Assembly (NCBI GenBank): GCA_021648085.1
Contig: JAKITS010000001.1
Location: 816,064-880,063, forward strand
Direction: 5' to 3'
DNA length: 64,000 nucleotides
Origin: Candidatus Magasanikiibacteriota bacterium
GTDB taxonomy: Bacteria; Patescibacteriota; Patescibacteriia; Magasanikbacterales; UBA922
In this document: positions 2,280 to 60,021 of the stretch, one piece after another
Layout of the letters: each line of letters begins with the position of its first letter
Numbering within the stretch: the first letter of the stretch is position 1
Position numbers and translations under genes: made by a program
The notes under the pieces: model-generated
The model's input: the letters and a program-made list of their open reading frames with translations, nothing else
Database searches by the model: none
What the model was told of the DNA's origin: nothing

Positions 2280-3257
2280 TTATCCTTCTGCAAATTTTCC
2301 AACTAAAACATCTAAAAGTAAAGACTGGTCAACTTGGCCGGTTTTTATTTTTATATCAAAATCCAAAAGTTCTGAGTAGAAATTTTTTAAAGTATCTAGC
2401 GAATAATTATTCGCAGTTGATAAAGATTTTTGTGCCACATACGGATGCATCTTCAAAGTGACGGCAAGAGATTTGCTGTTTACTTGTCCATTTCTTTCTA
2501 CAAAATCTTTGATTTCTAACAAGATCCTACATTGACGCAAAAGCATAGCAAAAATATAAAGCGTATTTTCGCCTTTTTTGTATTGTTGGCGAATCATTGC
2601 ATAAGCATTTTTACTATTTTTATTTAAAATACTATCTATTAAATTGAAAATATTATCATCCGCCTTCTCTGCAACAAACAAATCTACATCTTTGTCTGTG
2701 ATCTCTTCACCATCTTTGTAATCCAAAAGTTGGTCGAGTAGGGAACTAGCTTGCCACATATCTATGGAATTTTTTGCAAGTTTGTTTGAAGCACTCCAAT
2801 TTATAGCACCACCTCTGCTTTGAGCTTCTTTTGCTATCCAACCTCCCAACTCATTTGACTTCAGGACGTCAAATTTGCGCGTGTAGGGCTGTTTGACTAG
2901 CAAAGACATAAGATTCTTCGCAACCTTCTTTTTTACAGTGTCTAAGCCGTCCCAAATCACTACAACATTTTTACTTTCTTTATCAAAAAAACCTTTTTTT
3001 AGGTGTTCTGCAAATAATTCAAAGAGTTTGTCTTGATTTGCAGCAAAAAAATTTTCCAGCACAATCATCTTTTTCTCCGCCAAAAAAGGAACGGTCAAAA
3101 CCTCGTTCCAAATAAACCCAATTTCTTTTGTCTTCTCGCAATCTATTTTTACAGTATTGAACCCTTCTAAATCACGCTTCTCCTTGAAACCTTTTATCAT
3201 TTGATTCAAATATTTTCTACTGCGAAAAGTGTCTTTGCCGTAAATAAAAATTATCAT
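2280..3257 (-). CDS. holA: DNA polymerase III delta subunit
   Basis: 325 aa; length and overall pattern typical of HolA (N-term MIIFIYGKDTF..., C-terminal helical domain); family call from pattern recognition, not a computed alignment. Confidence 0.7.
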   Translation of the reverse strand: MIIFIYGKDTFRSRKYLNQMIKGFKEKRDLEGFNTVKIDCEKTKEIGFIWNEVLTVPFLAEKKMIVLENFFAANQDKLFELFAEHLKKGFFDKESKNVVVIWDGLDTVKKKVAKNLMSLLVKQPYTRKFDVLKSNELGGWIAKEAQSRGGAINWSASNKLAKNSIDMWQASSLLDQLLDYKDGEEITDKDVDLFVAEKADDNIFNLIDSILNKNSKNAYAMIRQQYKKGENTLYIFAMLLRQCRILLEIKDFVERNGQVNSKSLAVTLKMHPYVAQKSLSTANNYSLDTLKNFYSELLDFDIKIKTGQVDQSLLLDVLVGKFAEG

Positions 3258-3456: not shown

Positions 3457-4023
3457 ATGAGAAAGTTCTTTTCAGCAATATTCGTGTTCTCAATTTTAAC
3501 TTTGTTTTGTTTTCCAATTTTTGGGCAGGGCTATGTTAGTTTGGAAACTGAAGTTTCAGTTCAAAATAATGTGGCCAGTATAAACACACTCGGGTATGCC
3601 GAGGTCGACAACATATTTATATTTGCTTCTGTTAGTGAAAATTTTTCGCAAGTTTATGGAGGACTAACAATCTCCGCCAACGAATTGTCTGCCGGCGCAG
3701 GAATAGGCGTGACAGGTGAAAATAATTTTAGAACTGCTTTATTTACTAGTTGGAGAGAAAAGTACTATTCTTTTTCGGCTGTAGGTGAAATGGATTTGAG
3801 TGAAGACTCAAAAGGAAACTTCTTTTACATTTTAAAATTCTTGACATATTCTCCAGAAAACATACTTAGATACGGATGGGTTTTAAGAAGGTTTAATGGT
3901 TTTGGACCACTTCTCGAATTCAATTTTGGTAGCCATATCACGGTCTGGAGTTCGCCGGTAATGTACGGCATCTTGGAAACAGGAAAAGTCAGCTCCATGT
4001 TTGGACTACGGATAAAAAACTAG
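3457..4023 (+). CDS. hypothetical secreted protein (N-terminal signal peptide)
   Basis: 188 aa, hydrophobic N-term MRKFFSAIFVFSILTLFCFPIFGQG; Gly/Ser/Asn-rich; followed by strong hairpin terminator 4028-4060. Confidence 0.5.
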   Translation: MRKFFSAIFVFSILTLFCFPIFGQGYVSLETEVSVQNNVASINTLGYAEVDNIFIFASVSENFSQVYGGLTISANELSAGAGIGVTGENNFRTALFTSWREKYYSFSAVGEMDLSEDSKGNFFYILKFLTYSPENILRYGWVLRRFNGFGPLLEFNFGSHITVWSSPVMYGILETGKVSSMFGLRIKN

Positions 4024-4027
4024 AAAC

Positions 4028-4060
4028 CAAAACCGTCTCGATACTTCGAGACGGTTTTTT
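4028..4060 (+). terminator. intrinsic terminator
   Basis: aaaaccgtctcgatacttcgagacggttttttt. Confidence 0.8.
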
Positions 4061-4084
4061 TATTTCTTATTTATATTTTAATTG

Positions 4085-4395
4085 TTCTGTGGCGAGATCC
4101 TTCGGCTTCGCTCAGGATGACGTATTTAACTTTTTACTTTATAGACTTTACGAACTTTCTACTCTGTCATCCTAAACTCGATTAGGGATCCAGAGTTTGT
4201 ATCACAATATAATTATTACAGTTTGTGTATTTTTATATAAAAATAATTCTGGTTTGTAGACTCCTAGATTCCCAGTCGAGCTGAGAATGACAGAAAACCC
4301 AACGCACGTCATATGGAGCGGAGTGAAACGGAGTCGAAAATTTAACACACGTCATATTGAGCGGAACGAAGTGGAGTCGAAATATCTCAGTTTAG
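4085..4395. repeat. MITE-like repeat family units plus Z module (ggattcccagtcgagctgagaatgacag)
   Basis: gcgagatccttcggcttcgctcaggatgacgta (about 4092-4124), Z module about 4268-4300, two Y-prime units about 4305-4390. Confidence 0.8.
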
Positions 4396-4439
4396 TATTA
4401 TTAAAATATAAATAATTAAATTAAAACTTTAGCCTTTTT

Positions 4440-7139
4440 TTATTTTAATTCACCCCAATTTTTGGCATGGCACGTATGAATTTCGAGTGGTGCCAACATT
4501 TTTGTGCTGTGATCAAAATGTTGCACAGTTTGCATTACCTCTTCTACAACTTTTGTCACTTTGTTTACCAAACTGCTTTTTACCTCAAAAATCAATTCGT
4601 CGTGAACTTGCAAAACTATTTTTACATCTTCAAGTTTAAAATTTTTCTTTAATCTTTTGTCAATTTCTATCATCGCAAGTTTGAGCATATCAGCTGCTGT
4701 TCCCTGAATTGGCATATTTACTGCCATTCGCTCACCAGAGTTTCTCACCTGAAAATTTGATGCTCTCAATTCTGGAATATATCTGCGTCTTCCAAAAAAA
4801 GTTTCAACATATCCAAGTTTTTTTGCAGAATCCAAAGTTTCGTCTATATATTTTTTGACACCTTCAAATTCCTCAAAATATTTTTTTATAAATTCTTTTG
4901 CTTGTTCGTTGGAAATTCCTGTTCTGCTCGCCAAACCATATGAACCCATTCCATACAAAACACCAAAATTTACCTCTTTGGCACGACTTCGCATTGTTTT
5001 TGTAACCTCATCTTCTGACACACCGTTTATCGCTGCCGCAGTTGCTGTGTGAATGTCTTTTCCTTCGTTAAAAATCTCCAACATCTTTTTATCTTTTGCA
5101 AGCGAAGCCACAATTCTAAGCTCAATCTGCGAATAGTCGGCTGAAACCAGTTCAAAACCACTCGGTGTGCTAAAAGCCGTACGAATTTCTCTGCCAATTT
5201 CCGAACGCGTAGGAATATTCTGCAAATTTGGTTTTGAGCTAGAAAGTCTACCGGTTGTTGTCACGGCTTGATTAAAATCTGTATGAATTCTATTTGTATT
5301 TTTATTTATAATTTTTGGCAAAGCATCTACATAAGTATTTTTCAATTTTGACAATTCACGAAACTCCTCTATAAGTGGAATTATGTTGTGAAAACTTCGC
5401 AATTTATTCAATTCGCTAGAAGCAGTGGAGTAGCCAGTTTTACCTTTTTTAATTCCAGCGGTTGACAAAGCCAAATCTTTGAACAAAATATCGCGAAGCT
5501 GAACAGACGAGGCAATATTAAAATCTTTTCCTGCCAATTTATGTATTTTTTCAGTTGTTTTTTCCAATTTTGCGTTTATTTGTTTTGCCAATTTATTTAA
5601 TTTTTCTTTATCAACAAATATTCCATTTAGTTCTATTTGCGCCAAAACTTTTATCAACGGCATTTCAATTTTATGAAACAAATCATCATTTTTCTGTTCT
5701 TTCAAAAATTTATGATATTCTTCGTAAAGTCTGAAAAAATATTCAACCCCCTCATGTACGACTTCTGTACCATCATCAAACAAACTCGTTTGAACATTTT
5801 CTTTTATTTCTTTTCCAAGTTCTCTTGCAACAATACTTTTCAAATCGTGAGCACGGGTGCTAGAATTTGTTAAATACGAAGCAATCATCAAATCAAAAAG
5901 TTTGTTTTTAATTTCAATTCTATTTACTAACAAAATTTTTGTAAGTTGTTTTAGATTATGCCCAAAAAGCAAATTATCCCCAGAAAACAAAGAATAAAAA
6001 GTTTTCTTTTGATCATTTTCAAAAGCACGAAAATCGAAAAAATAATTTTCATTTTTAATTCCACACGCAAATCCTATCAATTTATTTCCTAAAACATCTT
6101 CATTTCCTAAAATTTCTTTACAAAAAAATTCTTTTTCTTTTTTTAATTTTGAAACTATTTTTTCTACATCTTCTACTGAAACTTTTACAATTTCTCTTTT
6201 TTCTTTTTCGGTAGATTTTGTTGGAAGATCTTTTTCCTCGTCGCCAAACATCGCAGAAGCGCGTTTTACCAAACTATTAAATCCAAAACCATTGAACAAA
6301 GCCACAACTTCTTCCAAATCTATTGTTTGTGTCTCGGCATCTTTTACTTTGAAATTTAGACCTTTTACATCTGTCACAATTGTTGCCAATTTTTTACTCA
6401 AAAAAGCCATTTCCTTGTCTGCTTTTAGCAGTTTTACAGTTCGCGGTTTTATTCCTTTTTCTTCCAAACTATCTATTTGCTCATAAATTTTCTCCAAATT
6501 CCCAATTTTAGAAAGCAGTTCATTTGCGCCTTTATCTCCAATTCCTTTTACTCCTGGAATATTATCAGATGGATCGCCTTTTAAAGATTTAAAATCAACC
6601 ATCATTTCTGGTGCAAAACCAAATTTTTCTTTTACAGCCTTTTCATCGAACATTACCACATCTGTTATTCCTTTGCGGATCAAATATACATGGATATTTT
6701 CATCTACCAACTGCAATAAATCTTTATCGCCACTTGAGATTATAACCTGCCCATCCCACTTTTTACTTAAATCTTTTGCAATTGTTCCTATCACATCATC
6801 AGCCTCAAAACCTGCTTTTTGATAAATTGGAATATCAAAAGCCTTCACAACTTCGTGCACAAGTGGAATTTGATCATATAATTCTTGGTCTGTCTTTACC
6901 CGCTTTACCTTATATTCTTTGTACAGATCATCTCGAAAAGTCTTTTTTGCAACATCAAAACTCACAGCCAAATATTCTGGTTTTATAGTATCCAAAACCT
7001 TCAAAAGCATAGAAGCAAAACCATACACAGCGTTCACCTGCACGCCAGCTTTGGTAGTAAACGGAGGAAGCGCGTGATAAGCTCTGTGGATTATCGCATT
7101 CCCATCTATAATTACAAATTTTTCTTTTTTATTAGTCAT
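4440..7139 (-). CDS. polA: DNA polymerase I
   Basis: 899 aa; N-terminal 5'-3' exonuclease domain, C-terminal family A polymerase motifs (DYSQIELR, QVHDELIFEV); 3'-5' exo motifs appear degenerate. Confidence 0.95.
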   Translation of the reverse strand: MTNKKEKFVIIDGNAIIHRAYHALPPFTTKAGVQVNAVYGFASMLLKVLDTIKPEYLAVSFDVAKKTFRDDLYKEYKVKRVKTDQELYDQIPLVHEVVKAFDIPIYQKAGFEADDVIGTIAKDLSKKWDGQVIISSGDKDLLQLVDENIHVYLIRKGITDVVMFDEKAVKEKFGFAPEMMVDFKSLKGDPSDNIPGVKGIGDKGANELLSKIGNLEKIYEQIDSLEEKGIKPRTVKLLKADKEMAFLSKKLATIVTDVKGLNFKVKDAETQTIDLEEVVALFNGFGFNSLVKRASAMFGDEEKDLPTKSTEKEKREIVKVSVEDVEKIVSKLKKEKEFFCKEILGNEDVLGNKLIGFACGIKNENYFFDFRAFENDQKKTFYSLFSGDNLLFGHNLKQLTKILLVNRIEIKNKLFDLMIASYLTNSSTRAHDLKSIVARELGKEIKENVQTSLFDDGTEVVHEGVEYFFRLYEEYHKFLKEQKNDDLFHKIEMPLIKVLAQIELNGIFVDKEKLNKLAKQINAKLEKTTEKIHKLAGKDFNIASSVQLRDILFKDLALSTAGIKKGKTGYSTASSELNKLRSFHNIIPLIEEFRELSKLKNTYVDALPKIINKNTNRIHTDFNQAVTTTGRLSSSKPNLQNIPTRSEIGREIRTAFSTPSGFELVSADYSQIELRIVASLAKDKKMLEIFNEGKDIHTATAAAINGVSEDEVTKTMRSRAKEVNFGVLYGMGSYGLASRTGISNEQAKEFIKKYFEEFEGVKKYIDETLDSAKKLGYVETFFGRRRYIPELRASNFQVRNSGERMAVNMPIQGTAADMLKLAMIEIDKRLKKNFKLEDVKIVLQVHDELIFEVKSSLVNKVTKVVEEVMQTVQHFDHSTKMLAPLEIHTCHAKNWGELK

Positions 7140-7194
7140 AGACTGTATTGTATCACTTTTACAAACAGTTTCAAGACATAATCTTTTTACTACT

Positions 7195-7760
7195 GTTTAT
7201 CATTTCTAGCTTAACCAGAAATCAACCGATCCCCAAGCTGAGGATGACAAGAAGGATATAATGATAGATGATACAGATTCGTGTGTAAACTCATTCCTTA
7301 CTTAATCTGCTCAATCTACTTTTCTCTCACGTCATCCCGAACGAAGCGAAGCCGAGCTTGAGGGATCTCGAGACAGAATAACAAAAACATTAAATAGTGA
7401 AACAAATACGAGATATTTCGGCTCTACTTCGTTCCGCTCAATATGACGTGAATAAAAAACGTCATCCTAAGCGAAGCTGAAGGATCTCGTGAAAGAATAA
7501 TAAGAACAAAAAATAGTAAAACAAACACGAGATCCTTCGGCTCCACTCCGTTCCGCTCAATATGACGTGAATAAAAAACGTCATCCTGAGCGAAATGGAG
7601 CAAAGCGGAATGAAGTCGAAGGATCTCGAGACAGTATCACAAAAGGAAAAAATATATTAACCCTTGAAAAGATATTAAAAATATGTTATATTTGTGTTGA
7701 GTAAGTGTACTAATGAATTAAAAACGAGATCCTTCGGCTATCGCTCAGGATGACGTGATT
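7195..7760. mobile_element. array of three tandem MITE-like copies plus leader segment (about 565 bp)
   Basis: copies 7329-7449, 7459-7568, 7578-7755 joined by gaataaaaa linkers; 7218-7470 about 85% identical to 19128-19400. Confidence 0.85.
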
Positions 7761-7847
7761 AATTTGTGACTTTCGACTTTATAGACTTTTGACTTTTTTA
7801 CTTAGTCTGCCTAGTCTGCTTAATCGTTAATCTGCTTTTTCTCCAAT

Positions 7848-7922
<75 letters not shown>

Positions 7923-8808: not shown

Positions 8809-8859
8809 TGTTTTTACACTCAATTTACTACACTTTCCTCTATCATCCTCAACTTAATT

Positions 8860-9081
8860 AAAAATCCAAGGTCTACAAACCAGAACTGTGATTCAAACCC
8901 TGGATTCCCAGTCAAGCTGAGAATGACAAAAAAATCCGTACGTCATATTGAGCGGAGTGAAACGGAGTCGAAATATCTCGTGAAAGTATTATCCAAATTA
9001 TGAATATTTAAAGTCTTATGATTTTATTTCGAGATCCGTTCGACTTCATTCCGCTTTGCTGCATTCCGCTCAGGATGACGT
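8860..9081. mobile_element. Z module + complete MITE-like copy (8940-9081)
   Basis: ggattcccagtcaagctgagaatgacaaaaaaatcc then ACGTCATATTGAGCGGAGTGAAACGGAGTCGAAATATCTCG - spacer - CGAGATCCGTTCGACTTCATTCCGCTTTGCTGCATTCCGCTCAGGATGACGTG. Confidence 0.85.
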
Positions 9082-9104
9082 GTTTATTTTTACTTTTTCT
9101 TTTT

Positions 9105-9215
9105 TATTCTAATCTAAACGAACGAAGTGAGTGATTTATCAAGCAGGCGAAGCCTAGCGATTCACCAAATGGAGCGCAAGCGGAATGATTCATCAAGCGT
9201 AAGCGATCCATCATT
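9105..9215. repeat. short repeat family 2 copy cluster
   Basis: cgaacgaagtgagtgatttatcaagcaggcgaagcctagcgattcacc...gcgcaagcggaatgattcatcaagcgtaagcgatcc. Confidence 0.7.
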
Positions 9216-12918: not shown

Positions 12919-14037
12919 TTATTGCCTAATAGGCATCACAATATAAATATAACTATTGTCATTTTTTGGTTTGAGCAAACAAGGTGTATCGCTAGTATTT
13001 ATATTTAAAATAACTTCACTTCCAGAGATTTGTTGCAATCCGTCCAAAACATATCTATGATTCAATAAAATTTCATTTCCATCACCAACAACTTTTGCAT
13101 CTAAACTAGAAGAGTGTTCTCCGGTTTGTGTACTTGTAGAAGAAACAGTCATTTCTCCGTCGCCAATTTTAAAATTCACTGCGTTTACTCCCAAAGTTGT
13201 AAATAAACTTGCAGCTTTTATCTTTTTTACCAAAGATCCGTTTGAAACAGTCGCACCAGTTTTAAATTCCTTGGGGATAATCTGTGTATAATCTGGATAC
13301 TTACCACCCACAAGCCTAGAAGACATTTCAAAATTCGCAAATCTTACAGAAATCTGGTTTTCACTTACCCACAAACGCACATTATTTTCAGCTTGCTCAC
13401 CTTTTAAAGTACCTATCAATCGAACCAATTCTTGAACACTTTTTGAAGGAACAATACATTCAAAACTTTCGTCTCCTTGCGAAATTTCTATTTTCTTTTC
13501 AGCCAATCTGTATGAATCTGTTCCAGCCAAAGTTAGACCTTTAAAACTTGGATTGAAAAATCCAAAATAAACTCCAGATAATTCTTGTCTTATTTCATTT
13601 TTTGCCACAGCTACAACAACTTTTGCCAACGAATCTTTAAAACCTTCTGCCGAAAGTACATATCCATTTTTTTCTTCTATTTCTGGAATAACGGGATAGT
13701 CATCTGCTTCTACACCTTTTATTTTTGTTTTGGAACTTCCACATTTTACGATAAGTTCATTTTCTTCTAAAGAAATATGAATTTGTTCTTCTGGTAAAAG
13801 ATTTATAAAATCAGTCAATGTTTTTGCTGGAACTGTAAAACTTCCTTCGTTTTCTATTTTAGCTCTTAGGTTTGTTTTTATTGCAATTTCCAAATTTGTA
13901 CTCACAAGTTCAACTTTAGAGCCACCTACCTGAATCAATACATTATTTAGTATTGGTAAATTTGTATGTTTATTTGCTATTCCGCTTACTTGGTGTAATA
14001 CGCTTAATAGGTTTTCTCTTGTACATGTGAATTTCAT
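12919..14037 (-). CDS. dnaN: DNA polymerase III beta sliding clamp
   Basis: 372 aa; N-term MKFTCTRENLLSVLHQVSGIANKHTNLPILNNVLIQ typical DnaN; located directly downstream of dnaA. Confidence 0.85.
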   Translation of the reverse strand: MKFTCTRENLLSVLHQVSGIANKHTNLPILNNVLIQVGGSKVELVSTNLEIAIKTNLRAKIENEGSFTVPAKTLTDFINLLPEEQIHISLEENELIVKCGSSKTKIKGVEADDYPVIPEIEEKNGYVLSAEGFKDSLAKVVVAVAKNEIRQELSGVYFGFFNPSFKGLTLAGTDSYRLAEKKIEISQGDESFECIVPSKSVQELVRLIGTLKGEQAENNVRLWVSENQISVRFANFEMSSRLVGGKYPDYTQIIPKEFKTGATVSNGSLVKKIKAASLFTTLGVNAVNFKIGDGEMTVSSTSTQTGEHSSSLDAKVVGDGNEILLNHRYVLDGLQQISGSEVILNINTSDTPCLLKPKNDNSYIYIVMPIRQ

Positions 14038-14139
14038 ATTTTAAAATATTAGTTGAAATCTGAAAATTTGAGTTTCTAGAATTTTATTTTTGTCCTTTCT
14101 ATTAATATATAAATATAAATAGAAGTAGTAGTAATAAGG

Positions 14140-14365
14140 GCTGTGGACAAAGTGGATAACCCTTATTTTTGTTTTGGTTTAGCTAATTTTTGTTTGTTAG
14201 AAATGTGTATCAAGCTGTTAATTTTCTATTAACAACTTGTGTATAAAACTGTTGATAACATTTTGTATGTGGATAACTTACTTTTTGTACACAGGTTATT
14301 CATCTTCTCTCCACAATTTATTCTACATGTTATACATATTTTATCAACAGTTTATCCACTTTTTG
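14140..14365. promoter_or_regulatory. DnaA-box cluster in dnaA-dnaN intergenic region (candidate oriC part)
   Basis: TTATCCACA-like boxes at about 14152 (agtggataac), 14268 (tgtggataact, perfect), 14355 (tttatccact); AT-rich. Confidence 0.6.
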
Positions 14366-14402
14366 TATATAAAATGAATATAAATATTAAACTTTTTACA
14401 AA

Positions 14403-15833
14403 TTAAGTTATAGTATATAATCTTTGTTTAATTAATTCTATTTCTTGTTGTAGTTTTTCATCCATATCTACTTTTTTGTAAATTTTTTTGTATGCATGCA
14501 TTGCTGTTGTGTGATCTCTTCCTCCCATCTCGTTTCCTATTGCAGGATAGGACATACTCAACTCAATTCGCATTAAATACATTATTATTTGTCTTGGGAA
14601 AGATATGTGTCTCGCTCTACTTTTATTTAATATGTCGGTTGGGCTTATATTATAAAATTCAGTAACGGCGTCAATAAGTCTTCTTGGTGTAAGATTTGTT
14701 TTTACATTAACTTTTTTAAATGTGGATATAATTGAATTAACACTATCAATTGTCGGAAAAATATTTTTTAACTCGTGAAATGCAATAATTTTGTTTAATG
14801 CACCTTCTAGTTCACGGATATTGCTTTGTACAGACTCTGCTACCATTTGTACCACCTCGTCTGTTAGTGAATAATTTTTTTCTAGACATTTTGATTGTAA
14901 AATAGCCACTCTTGTCTCTAAGTCTGGGGCTGAAATATCTGCTATCATTCCCCATTCAAAACGGCTTTTGAGTCTGTCTGCTAAAGACGCAATTTCTTTT
15001 GGTGGTCTATCACTTGTGAGGACTACTTGCCTTCTGTTTTGGTGGAGTTCGTTAAAAGTATGGAAAAACTCTTCTTGAGTTTGCTCTTTACCGCCTATAA
15101 ATTGAATGTCGTCTATTAAAAGTAGGTCTACATTTCTATATTTTTCTTTAAAATTCGTAATTCTCCTTTGTTGTACAGCCGAGACAAAATCATTTGTAAA
15201 TTTTTCAGATGTTACATATAAAAAATTCATATTTGGATTTGTCGCAAGCATGGAGTGTGCTATTGCTTGAAGGAGGTGGGTTTTTCCTAATCCAACTCCA
15301 CCATAAATAAACAAAGGATTGTATGCTTCACCAGGACGATTTGCCACAGCGTTTGCAGCGGCATGAGCAAGTTCATTATTTTTTCCTATTATAAAAGATT
15401 CAAAAGAGTATTTAGAGTTTAAGCTAAAACTGTGCCCACTTATTGGCAACATACTAGGTGTAAACTTTTTTTGTGCTGGCGGAACATTGAAAGTTTGTGG
15501 TTTAGTTTTGGGCAGGCTTTGATGTTTTGGTGCAACATTTCGCTTTAAAGCTTCTGTTGCTATAGGTTCTTTTTGTATTTTTTTTATATTATTAACTGTG
15601 TAAGTAACGCGTCTAATAGGTTTTTGAGTTACTTTTTCTAAAAGTCTGACAAGCTCAGAATGATATTTTTTTTCTAACCAGCTTTTTGTAAATTGATTTG
15701 GAACGCAGACTTCTATCTGACCAGCTTCATAGTTTGAAATTCCAGTATCACCAAACCATGTAATAAAATTAGCCTTTGAGATTTTGAGCTCAAATTCTGC
15801 TAGTATGGCTTGCCAAATTTCGTGATTTGTCAT
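14403..15833 (-). CDS. dnaA: chromosomal replication initiator DnaA
   Basis: 476 aa; AAA+ Walker A GGVGLGKTHLLQA, Walker B LLLIDDIQF, C-terminal DNA-binding domain; flanked by DnaA boxes. Confidence 0.95.
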   Translation of the reverse strand: MTNHEIWQAILAEFELKISKANFITWFGDTGISNYEAGQIEVCVPNQFTKSWLEKKYHSELVRLLEKVTQKPIRRVTYTVNNIKKIQKEPIATEALKRNVAPKHQSLPKTKPQTFNVPPAQKKFTPSMLPISGHSFSLNSKYSFESFIIGKNNELAHAAANAVANRPGEAYNPLFIYGGVGLGKTHLLQAIAHSMLATNPNMNFLYVTSEKFTNDFVSAVQQRRITNFKEKYRNVDLLLIDDIQFIGGKEQTQEEFFHTFNELHQNRRQVVLTSDRPPKEIASLADRLKSRFEWGMIADISAPDLETRVAILQSKCLEKNYSLTDEVVQMVAESVQSNIRELEGALNKIIAFHELKNIFPTIDSVNSIISTFKKVNVKTNLTPRRLIDAVTEFYNISPTDILNKSRARHISFPRQIIMYLMRIELSMSYPAIGNEMGGRDHTTAMHAYKKIYKKVDMDEKLQQEIELIKQRLYTIT

Positions 15834-15974
15834 AATTATTTTATATGGTTGGTTTTGCTAAAGTATTATTTTTTGAAGAAGGTTAATTTGGTAATAATTC
15901 TTTGTAATAATAAATTGATTTCATTGTAGCACATAACTTATAAACAAAAAATTGTTCTTAATTTAGCCAAAAAA

Positions 15975-16022
15975 TAAAATTGTGTGGATAACTTGGGTAT
16001 ATTATACACAGGTTATCCACAT
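15975..16022. promoter_or_regulatory. DnaA boxes upstream of dnaA (candidate oriC part / dnaA autoregulation)
   Basis: two perfect TTATCCACA boxes (gtgtggataactt at about 15980 and ggttatccacatg at about 16012) in AT-rich dnaA-rpmH intergenic region. Confidence 0.65.
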
Positions 16023-16173
16023 GTTAACAAGTCTTTATAAAAAACGCAAACGGTAAAAAAACTCTGTAATGGTTGACAAAATCAAATAATTTGTTTATAA
16101 TGGCTTCATTGAGTCTAATGTGATTCAGTTGCACAATTTTTTATTGGACAGTAAGTCCACTTAGTATATTAAT

Positions 16174-16350
16174 ATGCCGAAAAGAACCTATCAACCCAAA
16201 AAAAGAAAAAGAGCGAGAGCACATGGTTTCATGAAAAGAATGAAAACAAAAGCAGGTAGAAATCTTTTGAAAAGAAGAAGAGATAAAAAAAGAGATAAAT
16301 TATCTGTAAGTGATGAAAAAAAAGGTAAACGCCTTAGAAAAACTCGTTAA
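16174..16350 (+). CDS. rpmH: 50S ribosomal protein L34 (with C-terminal basic extension)
   Basis: [45 protein letters not shown] matches L34 consensus, then about 14 extra basic residues; not in ORF track (<60 aa); canonical position upstream of rnpA. Confidence 0.8.
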
Positions 16351-16546
16351 ATTTTTTTGAAAAAACCGTATTGTAAGACCTGCCTCAAAACATTGTTTTT
16401 ATTAAAACTTATAAATTTTTAATAAAGAAAACATGTTTTGAGGCAGGTCTTTTGGATTTTTTTGGTATAATGAAATAACAATTAGATTGTAGCTTTATTT
16501 CTTAAAATTTGATATTTAAAGTTTGTAATTTGTTTGTATCTTATTT

Positions 16547-16942
16547 TTGTATTTTAATAAAAATATGCTTCAAAAAGAAAATAGATTAAAGAAGATGAAA
16601 GATTTTGAAATACTTTTTAAAGAAGGTAGATATTTTAATTTAGAATTTTTGACATTAAAAGTTTGGAAAATTGATCCAGAAAAATATCCCAGAAAAAAAT
16701 ATTCAAAAGACGATTTAAAAATTGCTTTTACTGTTGGCTTGAAAGTAAACAAAAGTGCAGTAAAAAGAAACAGAGTAAGAAGAAAAATGCGCGAAGTTGT
16801 AAGGCTACTTATAAAATCAGAAAAAATAAAAAAAGGTTTTATGGCGGTTTTAATTGCAAAGCCAGAAACTTTGGAAAAAGATTATGCTGAAATTGAAAAA
16901 GTAATAAATAAACTTTTGTTTAAAGCACATTTAATAAAATAG
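16547..16942 (+). CDS. rnpA: ribonuclease P protein component
   Basis: 131 aa basic protein directly downstream of rpmH; RnpA-like RNR motif region (VKRNRVRRKMREVVR). Confidence 0.8.
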   Translation: MYFNKNMLQKENRLKKMKDFEILFKEGRYFNLEFLTLKVWKIDPEKYPRKKYSKDDLKIAFTVGLKVNKSAVKRNRVRRKMREVVRLLIKSEKIKKGFMAVLIAKPETLEKDYAEIEKVINKLLFKAHLIK

Positions 16943-16974: not shown

Positions 16975-17240
16975 TTACTTTTCTGTCATTCCTGACTTGA
17001 CCAGGAATTCAGGAGTCTTTGGTAAATAGACAATGATACAAACCCTGCCTGCCCGCCGGCAGACGGGGGTCATCAATCAAGCTGAGGATGACAGAATACC
17101 CATATGTCATCCTGAGCGAAGTCGAAGGATCTCGGGATAAGTATTACAAAACAAAAAACATTCACAATTTTGGTTATACTTTCCCGAGATTCCTCAAGTT
17201 CCACTTCACTTCGTTTCGTTTCGTTTGAGATGATGTGTAG
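16975..17240. mobile_element. composite repeat: gtcattcctgacttgaccaggaattcaggagtc module + cctgcccgccggcag + Z + MITE copy (17104-17237)
   Basis: atgtcatcctgagcgaagtcgaaggatctcggg ... cccgagattcctcaagttccacttcacttcgtttcgtttcgtttgagatgatgtg. Confidence 0.8.
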
Positions 17241-17281
17241 AGTCTTTTGTCATTTTAAACAAAAGTGAAAATACTTTTTAT

Positions 17282-17545
17282 ATGAAAAAAATAATCAAAA
17301 AAATACTTTATATGCCACGCATTCCATTTTTGTGGGCAATAAAACTTTATCAAAAAACACTATCTCCAGATCATGGAGTTTTTAAATCTCAGCATCCGTA
17401 CGGATATTGTAGGTTTTACCCAACTTGTAGCGAATACGGTTACAAAATCATTCAAAAAAAAGGTCTTATAAAAGGAATTCCAAAAACTGCCTGGCGAATT
17501 GCCCGTTGCAATCCTTGGAGTAAAGGTGGTGTGGATTTACCTTAA
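17282..17545 (+). CDS. yidD: membrane protein insertion efficiency factor YidD
   Basis: 87 aa; conserved YQKTLSPDHG...CRFYPTCSEY...RCNPWSKGGVD motifs; canonical position after rnpA. Confidence 0.85.
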   Translation: MKKIIKKILYMPRIPFLWAIKLYQKTLSPDHGVFKSQHPYGYCRFYPTCSEYGYKIIQKKGLIKGIPKTAWRIARCNPWSKGGVDLP

Positions 17546-17989: not shown

Positions 17990-18125
17990 AAAATCACGTC
18001 ATCCTGAGCGATAGCCGAAGGATCTCGGGACAATATTACCAGAACATAAAATATTCAAAGTTCTAATGATACTAAATCGAGATATTTCGACTTCGTTTCA
18101 CTCCGCTCAATATGTCGTATTTTTA
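17990..18125. mobile_element. complete MITE-like copy (17996-18118)
   Basis: cacgtcatcctgagcgatagccgaaggatctcggg - spacer (inverted relative of the 2060 spacer) - tcgagatatttcgacttcgtttcactccgctcaatatgtcgta. Confidence 0.85.
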
Positions 18126-18250
18126 TTCATAGTAATACACCAAAATTTGCCTCGGTGTGGAAGTAATTATTACAGAAATATCTTGGGTATTGATCTGAGG
18201 ATAATTTATTTATGTTATCCTGAATGAAGTCTGAAGACTATTTTTTTAAT

Positions 18251-19018
18251 TCATAAAAAACCCAATGCTTTTTTATGAAGTTTTCCATTTGTGGCAACTA
18301 TGTTTGTATCACCAATTTGCCAGTCTTCACCTTCAAAATTTGTTGCTTTTCCCCCAGCTTCACGCAAAATAGCGATTCCAGCTATAACATCCCAAGAATG
18401 TACTTCTGTCATTATACACACATCGGCTTTTCCGCTCGCTACACTTGTTAGTTCAACGCCTGCGGCCGCAAATATGCGAACACGGGCGTTTGCCTCGTTT
18501 AGGTTTTTAAAGACCTTATTTAACTCTTTTACACCTTGTTTTGTATGACCGCCACAGATTAGTGCCATCATTTGTGTGTGTTTTGGTTCTGATACAGAAA
18601 TCTTCTTATTATTTACAAAAGCGCCACCACCTTTTTCAGCCCAAAATACTTCGTTTGTGAGAGGACTTCCCACCACACCAAGCTTTATTTTTCCTTTTTC
18701 GGCAAAGCTAATATGAGTTGTAAATTCTTTGAATCCGTATGCAAAATTGCTAGTTCCGTCTAATGGATCTACAAACCAAGTTCGCTCGCTCCCATTTTCT
18801 ATCGCTGGCGACTCTTCACTAATTATGTTATCTGTAGAAAAATATCTTTCTAATTCTTTTATAATAATTATATTTGCTTTTTTGTCCGCTTTTGTGACGA
18901 TTTCTCCATGCTTTTTTGTCTCAATTTCTGTCTGCCCAAGTGAATTAAACTCTTTTTTTAAAAATGTATTTACTTTTCTTGCTATTTTAATTGCAATTTT
19001 TAATTCTTTACTTTTCAT
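18251..19018 (-). CDS. inositol monophosphatase family protein (SuhB-like)
   Basis: 255 aa; IMPase motifs WFVDPLDGTSNFAYGF and downstream WDVIAGIAI. Confidence 0.8.
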   Translation of the reverse strand: MKSKELKIAIKIARKVNTFLKKEFNSLGQTEIETKKHGEIVTKADKKANIIIIKELERYFSTDNIISEESPAIENGSERTWFVDPLDGTSNFAYGFKEFTTHISFAEKGKIKLGVVGSPLTNEVFWAEKGGGAFVNNKKISVSEPKHTQMMALICGGHTKQGVKELNKVFKNLNEANARVRIFAAAGVELTSVASGKADVCIMTEVHSWDVIAGIAILREAGGKATNFEGEDWQIGDTNIVATNGKLHKKALGFL

Positions 19019-19059
19019 ATTTTATGGTTATTTCTTTTATTTTACCATATTTATCATCT

Positions 19060-19660
19060 CTTAGCTTAACCAGGAATCCAGGAGTCTTTAATCACAAAAC
19101 AGTGAAAGAAAAGAAAAAAAGAAAAAAAGAAATAGATCTCCAAGCTAAGGATGACAAGAAGGACATAATGATACATGACACAGATAACATGATACAGATT
19201 CTTATATAAATTCCTTCCTTACTTAATCTACCCAATCTGCTTATTTCTTAATCTACTTTTCTCTCACGTCATCCCGAACGAAGCGAAGCGGAATTTAAAA
19301 AATCTCGAAACAATATCACAAAAACATAAAATAGTGAAACAATCCCGAGATATTTCGACTCCGCTTCGTTCCGCTCAATATGACGTGAACTTTTATTTTC
19401 GACTCCACAAGGTGAAGCTCAATATGACGTGAATAAAAACTTTTCGACTTCACTACACTTTGTTCCGTTTCGTTTGGGATGACGTATAGAGTCTTCTATC
19501 ATTTCTCAGTGAAGCGAGAAATCCCTTAAACATTTTAAAAACACAAAACACATTAATTAAAACACTGAAACGATTTCTCATCCGTATTCTCGGATTCGAA
19601 ATGACAGAAATAAGGTTTAATTATTTATATTTTGGTTATATTGCACCGAGATATTTCGAA
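19060..19660. mobile_element. composite repeat array (paralog of 7195-7760) with extra modules
   Basis: gcttaaccaggaatccaggagtc; leader about 85% identical to 7218-7330; MITE copy 19266-19386; extra Y unit to 19432; module gaagcgagaaatccc...ggattcgaaatgacagaa shared with 28680-28745. Confidence 0.85.
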
Positions 19661-19745
19661 TCTACTTAATATAAAGAAATAATAGTTTTTTAACAATATA
19701 AAAAGCGCCTTCCTTATGGTTAGCGCTTTTGTTTTTTCTTTCTCT

Positions 19746-19955
19746 CTATCTTTTTTTTGTCTCTAACACCTCAATTTTTTTGTGGCAATGACTTTTCCCG
19801 TCTTGCCACTGGTGATGTTTGAGCTTGTGGCAAACCGTCTCCACACGCTCAAATGTTTTTCCATTATACCGACTCACAATTGTGTGTGAGTCGGAAATGG
19901 TGGAAGCACACCCGCTCGCCAAAATGGCGAGCGAGAAGAAAAACAAGTACTTCAT
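19746..19955 (-). CDS. small lipoprotein, paralog 1 (lipobox LASGC)
   Basis: likely start at MKYLFFFSLAILASGCAST; ORF-track N-extension overlaps upstream paralog and is probably not translated. Confidence 0.5.
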   Translation of the reverse strand: MKYLFFFSLAILASGCASTISDSHTIVSRYNGKTFERVETVCHKLKHHQWQDGKSHCHKKIEVLETKKR

Positions 19956-20206
19956 CTTCTCCTCTTTTTTTGTTTCTTTTTTTTGATCGCCCGATACCGT
20001 CGTTGTTGGGCTTTTTCCCAGCTTGTTAGGACGGTACACTGAAATTTGCCGTTTTTAATACGGCAAACTGCGGCTCTCCGCGCTTGATAGCGCGGATTTC
20101 CGTAATACCGCTCACTCGCACTTTGCGAGTCCGCGGTGATCACGATACACCCGCTCGCCAAAATGGCGAGCGAGAAAAAAAGGAGGAAAATTAGCAAATG
20201 TTTCAT
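19952..20206 (-). CDS. small lipoprotein, paralog 2 (lipobox LASGC), poly-Lys/Arg tail
   Basis: likely start MKHLLIFLLFFSLAILASGC; shares signal peptide and nucleotide block cacccgctcgccaaaatggcgagcgagaa with paralog 1; minus-strand promoter TTGACA-17-TATATT at 20343-20371. Confidence 0.5.
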   Translation of the reverse strand: MKHLLIFLLFFSLAILASGCIVITADSQSASERYYGNPRYQARRAAVCRIKNGKFQCTVLTSWEKAQQRRYRAIKKKKQKKRRR

Positions 20207-20474
20207 TTCTTCTCCTTTTTTTTCGTTTCTTTTTTCTTTTCTTTTTTTTCTGTAAGGCATCGCTCCCACGATGCACCAAAAGACACAAGAACCATCACGG
20301 CCCCTCCTTTTTTAGGTTAAAAAATGAAATGAACATCGTTTAAATATACCACAAAAAAGCACTTTTGTCAAGCTTTGTATCTAAAAAAAACAAAAAAGAG
20401 CTAAAAAGCCCTTTTTTGTTCTTATTCTGTCCTAATCCAAGCGAAGAGATTCATCAAATGAAGTGATTCATTAT

Positions 20475-26179: not shown

Positions 26180-26430
26180 GTAAGAAGAACAAGAAATAAA
26201 TACACATCATCCCGAACAAAGCGAAGTACAAAATACTCACATATTATCCCAAACAAAACGCAAAATATACACACGTCATCCTGAGCGAAGCCGAAGGATC
26301 TCGAAACAATATCACCAAAACATAAAAATAGTGAAACAAACACGAGATATTTCGACTCCACTTCGTTTTGTTTAGTATGATGTGAAGTCCTTTTGTCATT
26401 CCCGACCCCGATCGGGAATCCAGGAGTCTT
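26180..26430. mobile_element. MITE-like copy (26273-26383) plus flanking modules (gtcattcccgaccccgatcgggaatccaggagtc)
   Basis: cacgtcatcctgagcgaagccgaaggatctcgaaac ... cacgagatatttcgactccacttcgttttgtttagtatgatgtg. Confidence 0.85.
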
Positions 26431-27216: not shown

Positions 27217-27313
27217 GTTTAAAATTGAAAAATTTATATATTATTTAAAATGATTTAGTATTTTGTTATTTTTCAAATAATAAAATACCCTCAATTTTTC
27301 AATTGAGGGTAAA

Positions 27314-27394
27314 TACCGGAAACGGGAATCGAACCCGTACGCTTTAAGGCGGGAGATTTTAAGTCTCCTGTGTATACCATTTCACCATTCCGGC
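27314..27394 (-). tRNA. tRNA-Leu (UAA), copy 1
   Basis: minus-strand GCCGGAATGGTGAAATGGTATACACAGGAGACTTAAAATCTCC + long variable arm + CGGGTTCGATTCCCG; anticodon loop CUUAAAA; own promoter (TTGACA-17-TAATTT, minus, about 27420-27455). Confidence 0.8.
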
Positions 27395-27667
27395 ACAAGA
27401 AATTAAAAAATAATGAACTATTTATGAAATTATCATATTTTTTGTTTTTTGTCAATCTTTTTGGATTAAATTTTGGATAAATTATAAAAATAAATATATT
27501 TATTCATTCCCACAACAAAAAAACAGCAATACTGCTGTTTTTGTGCCGCGTTCGAGGGTCTCCCTGTGTAGTTTTGGTTTTCACCAAACCTACCCTTCGA
27601 TTCCCGACATGACACAAGACTTTGTGTCATTCCCACAACAAAAAAACAGCAATACTGCTGTTTTTTG

Positions 27668-27752
27668 TGCCGCGGGCGGGAATCGAACCCGCACTCCTTT
27701 AGGGGGAACAGGATTTTAAGTCCTGCGTGTCTACCAATTCCACCACCGCGGC
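27668..27752 (-). tRNA. tRNA-Leu (UAA), copy 2
   Basis: minus-strand GCCGCGGTGGTGGAATTGGTAGACACGCAGGACTTAAAATCCTG + long variable arm + TTCGATTCCCGCCCGCGGCA; immediately followed by hairpin terminator 27640-27667. Confidence 0.85.
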
Positions 27753-28599: not shown

Positions 28600-28870
28600 T
28601 TTTATAAAAAATATTGTACATTATGCTTATTCCGGTCATCTCGAGCGAAGTGAGAGAGCGCTTAAGTGTTTTAAAAACAACACACTTTAATAATAAAGCT
28701 TAAGCGATTTCTCACTTACATACTTGGGTTCGGAATGACAGAACAAAAGGAACTAAGGTTTTATTATAATTATTTATATTTTATGAAACTGTATGGGGAT
28801 ATTTCGACTCCACTTCGTTTCGCTCAATATGATGTGAAAGAAAGACCTCTTCGAGGTTAAGATCTAAGAC
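28600..28870. repeat. degenerate composite repeat (shares modules with 19500-19640)
   Basis: ggtcatctcgagcgaagtgagagagcg...ttcggaatgacagaa...gatatttcgactccacttcgtttcgctcaatatgatgtg. Confidence 0.7.
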
Positions 28871-28966
28871 TATTCCGTAGTTAAGCGAAGAAGAAAGTTA
28901 GAAAGCTCTTTCCTGCTTAATTCTTATTTTTTGTATCATGTTATCTGAATCATGTATCATACTCTC

Positions 28967-30108: not shown

Positions 30109-30157
30109 TTGTTTATCTTTTCCAATACTTAGTCTGCCCAATCGTTAGCGTGTTATT

Positions 30158-55576: not shown

Positions 55577-56950
55577 ATGGCAATTCTTAAAAAGAAAAAA
55601 ATGAAACTAAAAAGGCGAAGCCATCATTTTAAATTGGTTAAAAAAATAGACTTAAAAAAACAAAAAGGTAGTAAAAAAAAGAATGTAAATAAAGTATCTG
55701 CAAATAAAAAAATAGTAACAGCAAAAAAAATAAATAAATTGATTGAGAGTGCAAAACACAAACATGTCCAAGATATTATAGTGGAGCTATTCAATGGTTT
55801 GATGGTGTATGCTGCTATCGGTGAGTCTGCCTCAGATTTGCATATAGAACCATGGGAGGAGGAAGCTGTTATTCGTATTCGTGTAGATGGTATTTTATAC
55901 GATAGGTTTAAAGTTAATAAAACTATCTATAGGCATCTTGTAGCACTTTTGAAGATTCTTACAAAAATGAGAACAGACGAGCACAGGTCTCCACAAGATG
56001 GGCGTTTTGAGTTTGATACTCCCACAAACGATGTAGATGTGCGAGCCTCTATTATTCCAACATCAAACGGAGAAAAAGTAGTTTTACGGTTTCTTTCTGG
56101 TAAATCTCATAAATTAACATTAACACAACTCGGATTTTTGAAGCACGATTTAAAAAAAGTTTCCAAAGCAATTCACAAAAATTGGGGAATGATTTTGGCA
56201 ACAGGTCCAACAGGAAGTGGAAAGACAACATCAATTTATGCAATTTTGGAAGAGATAAATAAAAGAGAGGTTAACATAACCACAATTGAAGATCCCGTAG
56301 AGTTTGAAATAGAGGGTGTAAACCAAAGCCAGGTCGACAGAAAGGCAAAGCTAGATTTTGCTACTGGACTTCGCTCTCTTTTGAGGCAAGATCCTGATGT
56401 AATTATGGTTGGTGAGATTCGCGATCACGAAACAGCAAAAATAGCAGTAAATGCAGCTATGACTGGACACAAACTACTCTCAACTCTGCACACAAATAAC
56501 GCCGCTACAACTGTTTTAAGACTTATAGATATGGGAACAGAGCCTTATTTGGTAGCCTCAACACTTATTTGTGCTATTGCTCAGCGGTTGGTTCGCAAGT
56601 TGTGTTCAGAATGTAAAGAAAAAAGAACTTTTACAAAAACTAAGGCTAAAAAAATTCTAAAAAAAGAACATATAGATTTATTATTTGGAAATAAAAAATC
56701 AATCAAAATATCAGCCGCAACTGGGTGCTACGAGTGTGGAAATACAGGATACAAAGGGCGTTTAGGTGTTTATGAGGTTTTGGAGAATACACCTGAAATA
56801 CAGGAGTTAATTTTGAAACATGTAAATAGTACAAAACTACAAGAAATAGCTATTAAAAATGGGATGACAACAATGGCAGAAGATGGATTGAAAAAAGTTG
56901 CTTGCCATGACACCACATTAGAGGAATTTATGAGGGTTATGCAAGAGTAA
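55577..56950 (+). CDS. pilB: type IV pilus / type II secretion assembly ATPase (PilB/GspE family) with Lys-rich N-terminal extension
   Basis: 457 aa; Walker A GPTGSGKTT, Asp box, His box, C-terminal tetra-Cys motif CSECK...CYECGNTG. Confidence 0.9.
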   Translation: MAILKKKKMKLKRRSHHFKLVKKIDLKKQKGSKKKNVNKVSANKKIVTAKKINKLIESAKHKHVQDIIVELFNGLMVYAAIGESASDLHIEPWEEEAVIRIRVDGILYDRFKVNKTIYRHLVALLKILTKMRTDEHRSPQDGRFEFDTPTNDVDVRASIIPTSNGEKVVLRFLSGKSHKLTLTQLGFLKHDLKKVSKAIHKNWGMILATGPTGSGKTTSIYAILEEINKREVNITTIEDPVEFEIEGVNQSQVDRKAKLDFATGLRSLLRQDPDVIMVGEIRDHETAKIAVNAAMTGHKLLSTLHTNNAATTVLRLIDMGTEPYLVASTLICAIAQRLVRKLCSECKEKRTFTKTKAKKILKKEHIDLLFGNKKSIKISAATGCYECGNTGYKGRLGVYEVLENTPEIQELILKHVNSTKLQEIAIKNGMTTMAEDGLKKVACHDTTLEEFMRVMQE

Positions 56951-56961
56951 TATATTTTAAT

Positions 56962-58080: not shown

Positions 58081-58083
58081 TAA

Positions 58084-58572: not shown

Positions 58573-58573
58573 T

Positions 58574-59458: not shown

Positions 59459-59459
59459 T

Positions 59460-60020: not shown

Positions 60021-60021
60021 T

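Follow-up and report, generated by a model that had tools for sequence, protein, structure and literature searches.

A 64,000-nt stretch of the Candidatus Magasanikiibacteriota contig JAKITS010000001.1 (GCA_021648085.1), which we call the window, holds two intergenic repeat arrays, locus A (7195-7760) and locus B (19060-19660), that open with the same leader. Are these two copies of one large mobile element, and if not, what are they built from and how did they come to share sequence? An earlier, sequence-only reading had described them as near-identical (about 85%), with a long leader extending a miniature inverted-repeat transposable element (MITE), and had proposed the recent transposition or duplication of a larger element. 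Our analysis indicates that both loci are probably pile-ups of short non-coding hairpin repeats, which appear related to the NTS/SRM hairpins of the Ssn nucleases, and that the block common to A and B was copied as a unit after it had decayed.

The leader strings quoted in the sequence-only reading were found at both places, and a 24-mer from the leader (GGATGACAAGAAGGAYATAATGAT) occurs exactly twice in the window against an expectation of 0. When locus A was compared with the window by blastn, 7228-7452 matched 19135-19389 (E = 5.5e-57). The pairwise alignment that the earlier reading had called for gave 88-89% identity over aligned bases, confined to the first part of each locus. Local alignment of 7217-7452 with 19128-19389 yielded 206 identical bases among 232 aligned (89%, or 77% when the 34 gap columns are counted), and widening the alignment so that it took in the first element's left arm (7186-7452 vs. 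19037-19389) yielded 235/266 (88%), with 88 gap columns and six indels, one of which spans 54 nt. The copies lie in direct orientation, 11.9 kb apart. Past 7452/19389 their colinearity ends, and only family-level arms, which also match about ten other places in the window, are common to both. The repeat cluster is real and its first part is paralogous, but the rest is not colinear and "near-identical" was too strong a description.

Both loci are assembled from hairpin arms, each oriented with 5' (C/T)GTCAT, a stem beginning at AT, a loop, a return stem, and ATC(Y). T1 arms, about 25 of which lie in the first 30 kb, have the form (C/T)AC-GTCAT-NNN-loop-NNN-ATCTCG, with a 5-bp covarying stem and a GAGCG-rich loop, and occur in a short form (T1S; CGTCATCCTGAGCGAAGYCGAAGGATCTCG) and a long form (T1L; CGTCATATTGAGCGGAACGAAGTGGAGTCGAAATATCTCG). 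T2 arms, several of which are found in the first 30 kb, comprise TGTCATTCCTGACTTGACCAGGAATCCAGGAGTC and its relatives (TGTCAT-ATTCCnGn-CTTGA-stem-ATCCAG) and have stems of 8-9 bp; modules of the CCTGCCGGCAGG type and of a "T4" type are rarer. The 5' flank of T1 is GTCAT in 20/25 arms, preceded by C (by T in one, at 17106), and ATCAT or GACAT in the other five, and intact T2 arms carry 5' TGTCAT. The 3' flank of T1 is ATCTCG in 23/25 arms and ATCTCA in 2/25, and the T2 arms at 19052 and 26395 end in ATCCAG. Most arms are paired as inverted doublets of ~90-130 nt with an A-rich loop between them, and doublets and solo arms stand back to back in mosaics.

Neither the abundance of the arms nor the complementarity of their stems looks random. 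The string CGTCATMYTGAGCG, allowing up to two mismatches, matches the window 28 times against 0.35 expected, and a generic detector of GTCAT followed by a hairpin found 29 instances vs. 8.4 ± 2.7. A perfect 5-bp basal stem is present in 18 of the 25 T1 arms, compared with 8.2 ± 2.1 under permutation (maximum of 16 in 20,000), and three covarying stems account for these: ATCCT/AGGAT (ten arms), ATATT/AATAT (seven), and ATCCC/GGGAT (one). Folded as single-stranded DNA (ssDNA), the doublets reach z scores of -3 to -7, and a T1S arm alone gives -5.8 kcal/mol (z = -2.5). No consistent target-site duplication was found among nine doublets. We rejected an RNA-gene reading, as an Rfam search with gathering and E-value thresholds returned just tRNAs and sub-threshold miRNA-like hairpins. 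An array of the TIGR-Tas or CRISPR type was likewise set aside, since the two 119-nt copies are the only sign of a regular repeat-spacer register and no open reading frame (ORF) resembling Tas or Cas lies nearby.

Set against these families, the shared block of ~250-350 nt resolves into three parts, a T2 doublet, a spacer, and a T1 doublet, and it begins and ends where elements do. In locus A, the T2 left arm (7198-7223, plus strand; TATCAT-TTCTAG-CTTAA-CCAGAAAT-C, aligning to 19052-19086) is decayed and forms a weak hairpin, the right arm (7228-7249, minus strand; reverse complement TGTCATCCTCAGCTTGGGGATC) is shortened, and the T2 loop has been deleted. A 78-nt spacer (7250-7327, plus) with TATAAT, ATGATACAG, and TTAATCTGC motifs, one of two spacer copies in the window, leads to T1 doublet A1 (7328-7450, plus), which consists of a variant left arm with an 11-nt insertion and the stem ATCCC/GGGAT, a 38-nt A-rich loop, and an inverted T1L arm; A1 folds as ssDNA at -18.9 kcal/mol (z = -2.95), and the common block ends at 7452. 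In locus B, the T2 doublet (19052-19156, plus) is also decayed, with its left arm at 19052-19086, an intact A-rich loop, and its right arm at 19135-19156. The spacer (19157-19264, plus) is longer than in A, at 108 nt, through local duplications of ATGATACA and TTAATCT motifs, and T1 doublet B1 (19265-19387, plus; fold z = -5.4), before the block's end at 19389, has the same 11-nt-insertion left-arm variant as A1 with a broken stem (CCC..AAA). The leader is thus not a long extension of a MITE but a decayed T2 doublet plus spacer that precedes a T1 doublet; CTACTTTTCTCTCACGTCATCC and GGATGACAAGAAGGAYATAATGAT serve as markers of the T2-spacer-T1 junctions.

Nor is the copy recent. The two copies differ by 11-12% substitutions in addition to the six indels, and in its T1 part A resembles B (A1-B1, 86%) no more closely than it does other copies (A1-A2, 84%; A1 and the copy at 26 kb, 83%), B1 and the 26-kb copy being 85% identical. 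Both copies share ATCAT for GTCAT, CTTAA for CTTGA, and a T2 right arm that is 4-5 nt shorter, and the 11-nt insertion in the T1 left arm is present in both A1 and B1. Because both carry the same defects, the block would have been copied after its T2 part had decayed, so duplication or gene conversion appears to fit better than transposition by the block's own ends. Of the proposed transposition or duplication of a larger element, then, the MITE-like palindromic clusters and a common block exceeding the core unit held up; the recency did not, and a block copy is favored. Long mosaic matches also link 1264-1395 with 26199-26330 (86%) and 2008-2124 with 18013-18129 (84%), and such matches between other loci reach 84-92%. 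The back-to-back junction of T2 (minus), 13-15 nt, and T1 (plus) recurs at 4292/4307, 8927/8942, and 17093/17106. Block sharing is a general property of these clusters, and the A/B pair is not special. The suggestion that recombination between the loci might yield inversion or deletion polymorphism finds little footing. Direct repeats cannot produce an inversion. A and B bracket dnaA, dnaN, PBP1A, rnpA, and yidD, and a deletion polymorphism is unlikely because the deletion would remove dnaA and dnaN and would be lethal.

The history of locus A can be read by comparison with the relative contig CAZHUL010000056.1 (L001), whose PolA is 83% identical to that of the window. Rather than lying downstream of convergent genes, as had been claimed, locus A sits between the divergent starts of polA (4440-7139 by Pfam, minus strand, ATG at 7139) and tRNA-Cys (GCA; 7848-7922, plus strand). 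This gap measures ~118 nt in L001 vs. 708 nt in the window. Ancestral intergenic DNA at 7659-7699 (plus), bearing a predicted tRNA-Cys promoter (TTGAAA-17-TATATT, 7664-7692), matches L001 125-165 at 37/41 positions (score of 62; shuffles 21 ± 2.7, maximum of 31). A polA promoter-like site (7147-7174, minus; TTGAAA-16-TACAAT with TG) is also retained ancestral DNA, conserved in L001 (TTAAAACACTTTTTATAAATGATACAATA). Because the L001 gap is short and both promoters are kept in the window, locus A is taken to be an insertion pile-up. The inserts have parted the back-to-back putative promoters of polA and tRNA-Cys by ~480 nt, with both still intact, and have added ~125 nt between the tRNA-Cys promoter and the tRNA.

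Beyond A1, this pile-up comprises T1 doublet A2 (7458-7569, plus; T1S left arm and a hybrid right arm with a broken basal stem, ATT..AGG; fold z = -7.1), a T1 arm with a 33-nt loop (7577-7628, plus), which is 94% complementary to 9039-9085, and an inserted T1S arm between the tRNA-Cys promoter and the tRNA (7725-7757, minus). A 119-nt period (2.0 copies at 7359-7594, 88% matches) reported by TRF arises from A1 and A2 together. We had considered 7577-7757 ("unit 3") as a single long-loop MITE and discarded the idea, as its middle is the ancestral promoter DNA, flanked by two opposed T1 arms. The regions downstream of polA are orthologous as well (window 4020-4445 vs. L001). A terminator and a T2 doublet are common to both genomes, the doublet (4166-4292, minus) being orthologous to L001 2944-3078 and hence inherited from the common ancestor, while T1 arms are confined to the window and a GIY-YIG element to L001. 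The closest PolA relatives of the window are metagenome-assembled genomes (MAGs) of Patescibacteria/Candidate Phyla Radiation (CPR) bacteria, with Patescibacteria, Falkowbacteria, and Portnoybacteria MAGs at 42-50% after L001. The L001 record is labeled "uncultured Gammaproteobacteria", and this label is probably wrong given that the next-best PolA matches are MAGs of the Patescibacteria group.

That GIY-YIG element connects the arms to a nuclease. At L001 3093-3450, a GIY-YIG pseudogene (PF01541, E = 1.2e-15) is preceded by a T2 arm and followed by an inverted one, and the element adjoins the gene-less T2 doublet at 2944-3078, which has the same arms. In the groundwater contig L094, an intact homologue (P0002) is flanked by T2 arms and surrounded by T2 doublets. 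The loop of the L094 doublets is homologous to that of the window doublet at 8846-8931 and to the start of the T2 loop in locus B (AGTCTTTAATCACAAAACAG), which resembles it. The idea that the T2 doublet loop might be a simple internal deletion of the ssnA element gained no support by eye, the doublet loops and the element ends in L094 and L001 showing no similarity. The repaired L001 protein has 6822 database relatives at E < 1e-5, and the best 120 of these are ~95 aa long (93-154 as called), 66-80% identical, and spread over many phyla; some homologue ORF calls carry arm-encoded extensions such as HSRESGNPE and DWMPDQVGHDK.

A system of this kind has been described by Chenal et al. (2025, Nat Commun 16:2388; PMC11893778), who reported the NTS (CGTCATTCCCGCGMAVGCGGGAATCYRG), of which dRS3 is the core, and derived a degenerate "SRM" search pattern. 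In that work, SsnA, a 94-aa single-domain GIY-YIG protein, binds the hairpin only as ssDNA and makes a strand-specific cut upstream of it, SRMs lie near 71% of homologues and on both sides of 42%, and NTS-ssnA-NTS is likened to an insertion sequence, comparable to IS200/IS605 with REP/BIME (PMC11893778). Across 80 metagenomic homologue loci, 59/74 have an oriented GTCAT-hairpin arm upstream of the gene at a distance of up to 150 nt, 63/73 have an inverted arm just downstream (within 150 nt), and 49/67 have arms on both sides. Up to 200 nt from the gene, arm density was 6.5/kb, and beyond that it was 0.51/kb. The published SRM pattern, HGTCWYN(0-2)YYVSBRHN(0-5)WNVSBRGN(0-2)RNCYNB, which is tuned to G+C-rich stems and loops of up to 5 nt, gave 2.15/kb near the gene vs. 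0.10/kb farther away (21-fold). The association of arms with ssnA is already published, and our analysis reproduces that result (PMC11893778).

We also noted the same 96-aa ssnA homologue (P0067) in an intergenic gap of eight contigs (L097-L104), at least one of which comes from a Patescibacteria assembly. Where both flanks were fetched, its neighbors are TraC-like and PrgI-like genes of a type IV secretion-like cluster, and the arms that flank the homologue are of the TGTCATCCTCGCGAATGCGGGGATCCAG type, several truncated copies of TTGTCATCCTC lying upstream.

We propose, as the probable explanation of both loci, that a small single-domain GIY-YIG nuclease of the SsnA type, whose gene lies at another place in the genome or has meanwhile disappeared, would recognize the arm hairpin in ssDNA and cut just 5' of it. 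The arms would form the termini of a compact arm-ssnA-arm element, with the doublets as gene-less relatives that spread. The A/B block may then have been copied between intergenic regions after T2 decay, recombination or gene conversion among repeat clusters being the simplest route, and both copies have since diverged by the substitutions and indels described above. Several points weigh against this proposal. The published SRM pattern has 0 matches on either strand of the window, and in L001 it matches one T2 arm. No ssnA or other GIY-YIG gene was detected in the 64-kb window by tblastn or by Pfam searches of ~40 ORFs, and no ssnA with T1 arms at its flanks was encountered. Few independent events underlie the stem covariation, given that T1S and T1L are two subfamilies, and a T1L arm alone gives no stable fold. 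The mechanism by which the A/B block was copied is one that we infer from the sequence. Finally, GIY-YIG nucleases act only as hydrolases of DNA, and Ssn is not known to carry out transposition chemistry.

The membership of T1 in an Ssn-related class is suggested by its architecture and its co-occurrence with T2, no partner gene having been seen for it, and searches outside the window bear on it. Among the 80 metagenomic loci, only L017 and L081 have, beside ssnA, an arm of loose similarity (a 5-bp basal stem and a loop that begins with GAG); no T1-like arm lies beside ssnA in six viral loci, and no T1 arms occur in L001-L011 or in the other fetched loci. A T1 30-mer and the T1L pattern went unmatched in viral contigs. 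The exact 26-nt T1S core (GTCATCCTGAGCGAAGTCGAAGGATC) was found as solo copies in one IMG/VR contig only, of 64% G+C, with no GIY-YIG gene nearby. Such identity is striking beside the 33% G+C of the window. The core sites in that contig are L092 2189-2214 and 6542-6567 and L093 6982-7007. The two copies that we read there are each preceded by CCCCCGTC. When a spurious ORF that runs across three T1 arms was used to query the protein database, no T1-rich relatives or arm-fused genes emerged, and a literature search by T1 arm strings returned no matches, while an NTS-like string returned a Neisseria construct as its sole match. A plasmid search with the T1S arm gave just the core CCTGAGCGAAGTCGAAGG, in Sphingomonas repeats whose 5' motif is different, and this does not speak for a common family. 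In Sphingomonas parapaucimobilis NZ_CP155752.1 (L111 9940-10025), an outward doublet, GGCCTTCGACTACGCTCAGGCTGAAC...GTTCAGCCTGAGCGAAGTCGAAGGCC, contains the T1 loop core CCTGAGCGAAGTCGAAGG, with GTTCAG replacing CGTCAT; repeats of this doublet type occur in 7-22 places in most replicons of that strain and in a single place in one replicon.

A bolder view of T1 is possible, although we hold it only tentatively and think it rather doubtful: T1 could be a distinct and widespread hairpin class that the SRM definition misses ((C/T)GTCAT, 5-bp stem, GAGCGAAGYCGA-type loop, return stem, ATCTCG), with an Ssn-like partner of its own and doublets that are actively spreading as non-autonomous derivatives. 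T1 doublets are present in the window and absent from the orthologous sites in the relative with 83% PolA identity. If this view is true, it would offer the first direct sign of Ssn-type element mobility, in a CPR genome with type IV pilus genes of the DNA-uptake type.

Five other explanations were weighed, and none is favored. That the T2-spacer-T1 block is a composite mobile element, bounded by the outward T2 left arm and the T1 right arm and transposed as a unit, would account for the limits of the homology, one falling precisely where the T1 right arm ends on its outer side (7452/19389) and the other close to the outer end of the T2 left arm, as well as for the same orientation of both copies relative to the start of the adjacent minus-strand gene (polA or the suhB-like gene). 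Such an element is nevertheless unlikely. Only two copies exist in 64 kb, the leader 24-mer has no exact match in the genome contigs searched, and the spacer is absent from the loci fetched; the left end is decayed in both copies (ATCAT, broken or weak stem) and would be a poor substrate, the ends derive from different arm classes, and there is no target-site duplication. We think it quite unlikely that the arrays are REP/REPIN-type elements unrelated to Ssn and mobilized by a RAYT (HUH Y1, related to IS200/IS605), even though inverted hairpin doublets, mosaic clusters, missing target-site duplications, and an ssDNA-hairpin logic would all suit them: the arms pair 5' (C/T)GTCAT with 3' ATCYNG, as in NTS/SRM, and not GTAG, the ORFs tested gave no Y1_Tnp match, and the gene between T2 arms in related contigs is GIY-YIG.

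Classical cut-and-paste MITEs with terminal inverted repeats, mobilized in trans by a DDE transposase, would resemble the 90-130-nt doublets in size, inverted ends, and A-rich cores. The repeats here, however, show no target-site duplications, include many solo arms and half-units, and have a covarying hairpin in each arm, and no transposase was found in the window, so that this explanation seems very unlikely. Host-selected regulatory or RNA elements, such as terminators, mRNA stabilizers, or portable promoters, are highly improbable. It is true that the repeats occur in intergenic DNA only, that promoter-like hexamers in the spacer face polA (TTTACA-17-TATCAT), and that one T2 arm scores as terminator-like, but the arms take both orientations relative to genes, Rfam returned just sub-threshold generic hairpins, promoter-like counts in locus B do not exceed those of shuffles, and in the related genome a 118-nt gap that holds no such element suffices. 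An assembly artefact, in which one locus was assembled twice, can practically be discounted: repeat-rich intergenic DNA is error-prone, and the L001 contig ends ~30 nt past tRNA-Cys, but the copies diverge by 11-12% with six indels and each stands between different unique genes.

Locus B lies upstream of a gene of the inositol-monophosphatase family (suhB-like; 18251-19018, minus) and downstream of two small lipoprotein-like ORFs. After the common block, it continues with two solo T1-like arms (19397-19431 and 19442-19486, minus) without counterpart in locus A, the best window matches of 19397-19486 being 1391-1433 or 1391-1502 (92%) and 17202-17255 (85%). These are followed by a "T4" doublet (19497-19607, plus; TC-ATTTCTC..GAGAAAT-CCC and, as the reverse complement, TGTC-ATTTC..GAAAT-C), similar to one at 28632-28742, and by a truncated T1 arm (19647-19670, minus) preceded by half of a long-type T1 loop. 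A 29-nt piece of the locus B spacer (19168-19196, ATGATACA-type) has a 93% inverse match to 28932-28960, just 3' of the ribonucleotide reductase beta gene. The two adjacent small ORFs at 19746-20269 encode near-identical lipoprotein signal peptides (..FFSLAILASGC..) and overlap as called, and a 12-nt tandem repeat lies at 20218-20247.

Hairpin repeats in the window all fall within 900-30100, and 30200-64000 is repeat-free. Stretches of 120 nt or more that lie outside tRNAs and ORFs of 90 aa or longer total ~10.1 kb of the first 30.2 kb vs. 2.25 kb of the remaining 33.8 kb. The repeat-bearing part is the neighborhood of the replication origin, with dnaN (12919-14037, minus), dnaA (14403-15833, minus), rnpA (16547-16942, plus), and yidD (17282-17545, plus); the AT-rich gaps at 14038-14402 and 15834-16546 (23-26% G+C) have no hairpin arm, in contrast to every other large gap in the first 30 kb. 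Short repeats other than hairpin arms, with ACTTTATAGACTTT and TACTTAGTCTGCC / TTAATCTGC motifs, occur at 7758-7847, 4124-4165, and 30120-30158, placing them directly upstream of tRNA-Cys (90 nt) and near 30.1 kb, as well as within the composite spacer. Downstream of the PBP1A gene (9100-9211) there is a different, degenerate repeat made of GATTCATCAAGCG / GAATCGCTTCGCTTG-type units, which is also present in L094 (2330-2420). Two minus-strand tRNA-Leu(UAA) genes (27313-27395 and 27667-27752), separated by ~270 nt in which GTCAT/ATGAC motifs occur, may have arisen by local duplication. At 55577-60408 there is a type IV pilus-like cluster with a PilB-type T2SSE ATPase, a PilC-type T2SSF protein, and at least two N_methyl prepilins, which may be relevant in that Ssn/NTS has been linked to natural transformation in Neisseria.

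CPR/Patescibacteria genomes are usually called small and streamlined, and here about one third of a 30-kb origin-proximal stretch lies outside the counted ORFs and tRNAs, much of it hairpin repeats. Our reading would extend the Ssn/NTS repeat class to an AT-rich CPR host and shows that AT-shifted and long-loop variants escape the published search pattern. The window and its relative offer filled and empty sites with which to ask whether the repeats move, and the repeats explain contig breaks and spurious small ORFs, a matter of consequence for assembly and annotation. The block common to the two clusters has little consequence in itself and would be a minor outcome of mosaic evolution.

How the arms compare with known systems remains to be set out. 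In PMC open-access articles and bioRxiv from 2024 onward, the sole paper to combine SsnA with GIY-YIG was PMC11893778, and its main text makes no mention of Patescibacteria, MITEs, or NIMEs. The window arms resemble NTS/SRM in their 5' CGTCAT/TGTCAT, a stem starting at AT, 3' ATCYNG, and intergenic clustering, and they carry the SRM 5' flank HGTCWY, a covarying hairpin just 3' of GTC, and the 3' flank RNCYNB (ATCYRG in NTS). They are unlike NTS/SRM in that T1 has only a 5-bp basal stem and a GAGCG-rich loop of 12-33 nt and the host is an AT-rich CPR bacterium. The inverted-doublet, MITE-like organization seen here also differs, and it is not discussed in the main text of PMC11893778. A strict dRS3 pattern (ATTCCC-N8-GGGAAT) has 0 matches in the window, and the relaxed ATTCC-N6..14-GGAAT matches, among arms, only those at 16988 and 26398.

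The neisserial NIMEs are repeat units bounded by dRS3 hairpins that form mosaic intergenic arrays. Our clusters are likewise intergenic mosaics of hairpin-bounded 50-150-nt modules, in combinations that vary by locus, although they belong to another phylum and their module sequences are unrelated. With REP/BIME/REPIN they share inverted hairpin doublets, mosaic clusters, the absence of target-site duplication, and presumed ssDNA-hairpin recognition. REPs carry a conserved GTAG at the 5' end, whereas the 5' motif here is GTCAT, and the gene found in relatives encodes a GIY-YIG hydrolase rather than an HUH transposase; no RAYT/Y1_Tnp match was obtained among ~40 window ORFs. Compared by description with bacterial MITEs such as Correia and Rickettsia palindromic elements, the doublets are similar in length (~100-150 nt), palindromic structure, high copy number in a small genome, and position next to promoters, and they differ in having no TA or other target duplication, in the frequency of solo arms, and in the hairpin that each arm forms by itself. 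The feature is real and non-random, and it appears to be an example of the known Ssn/NTS-like hairpin repeats, organized like NIME, BIME, or REPIN clusters.

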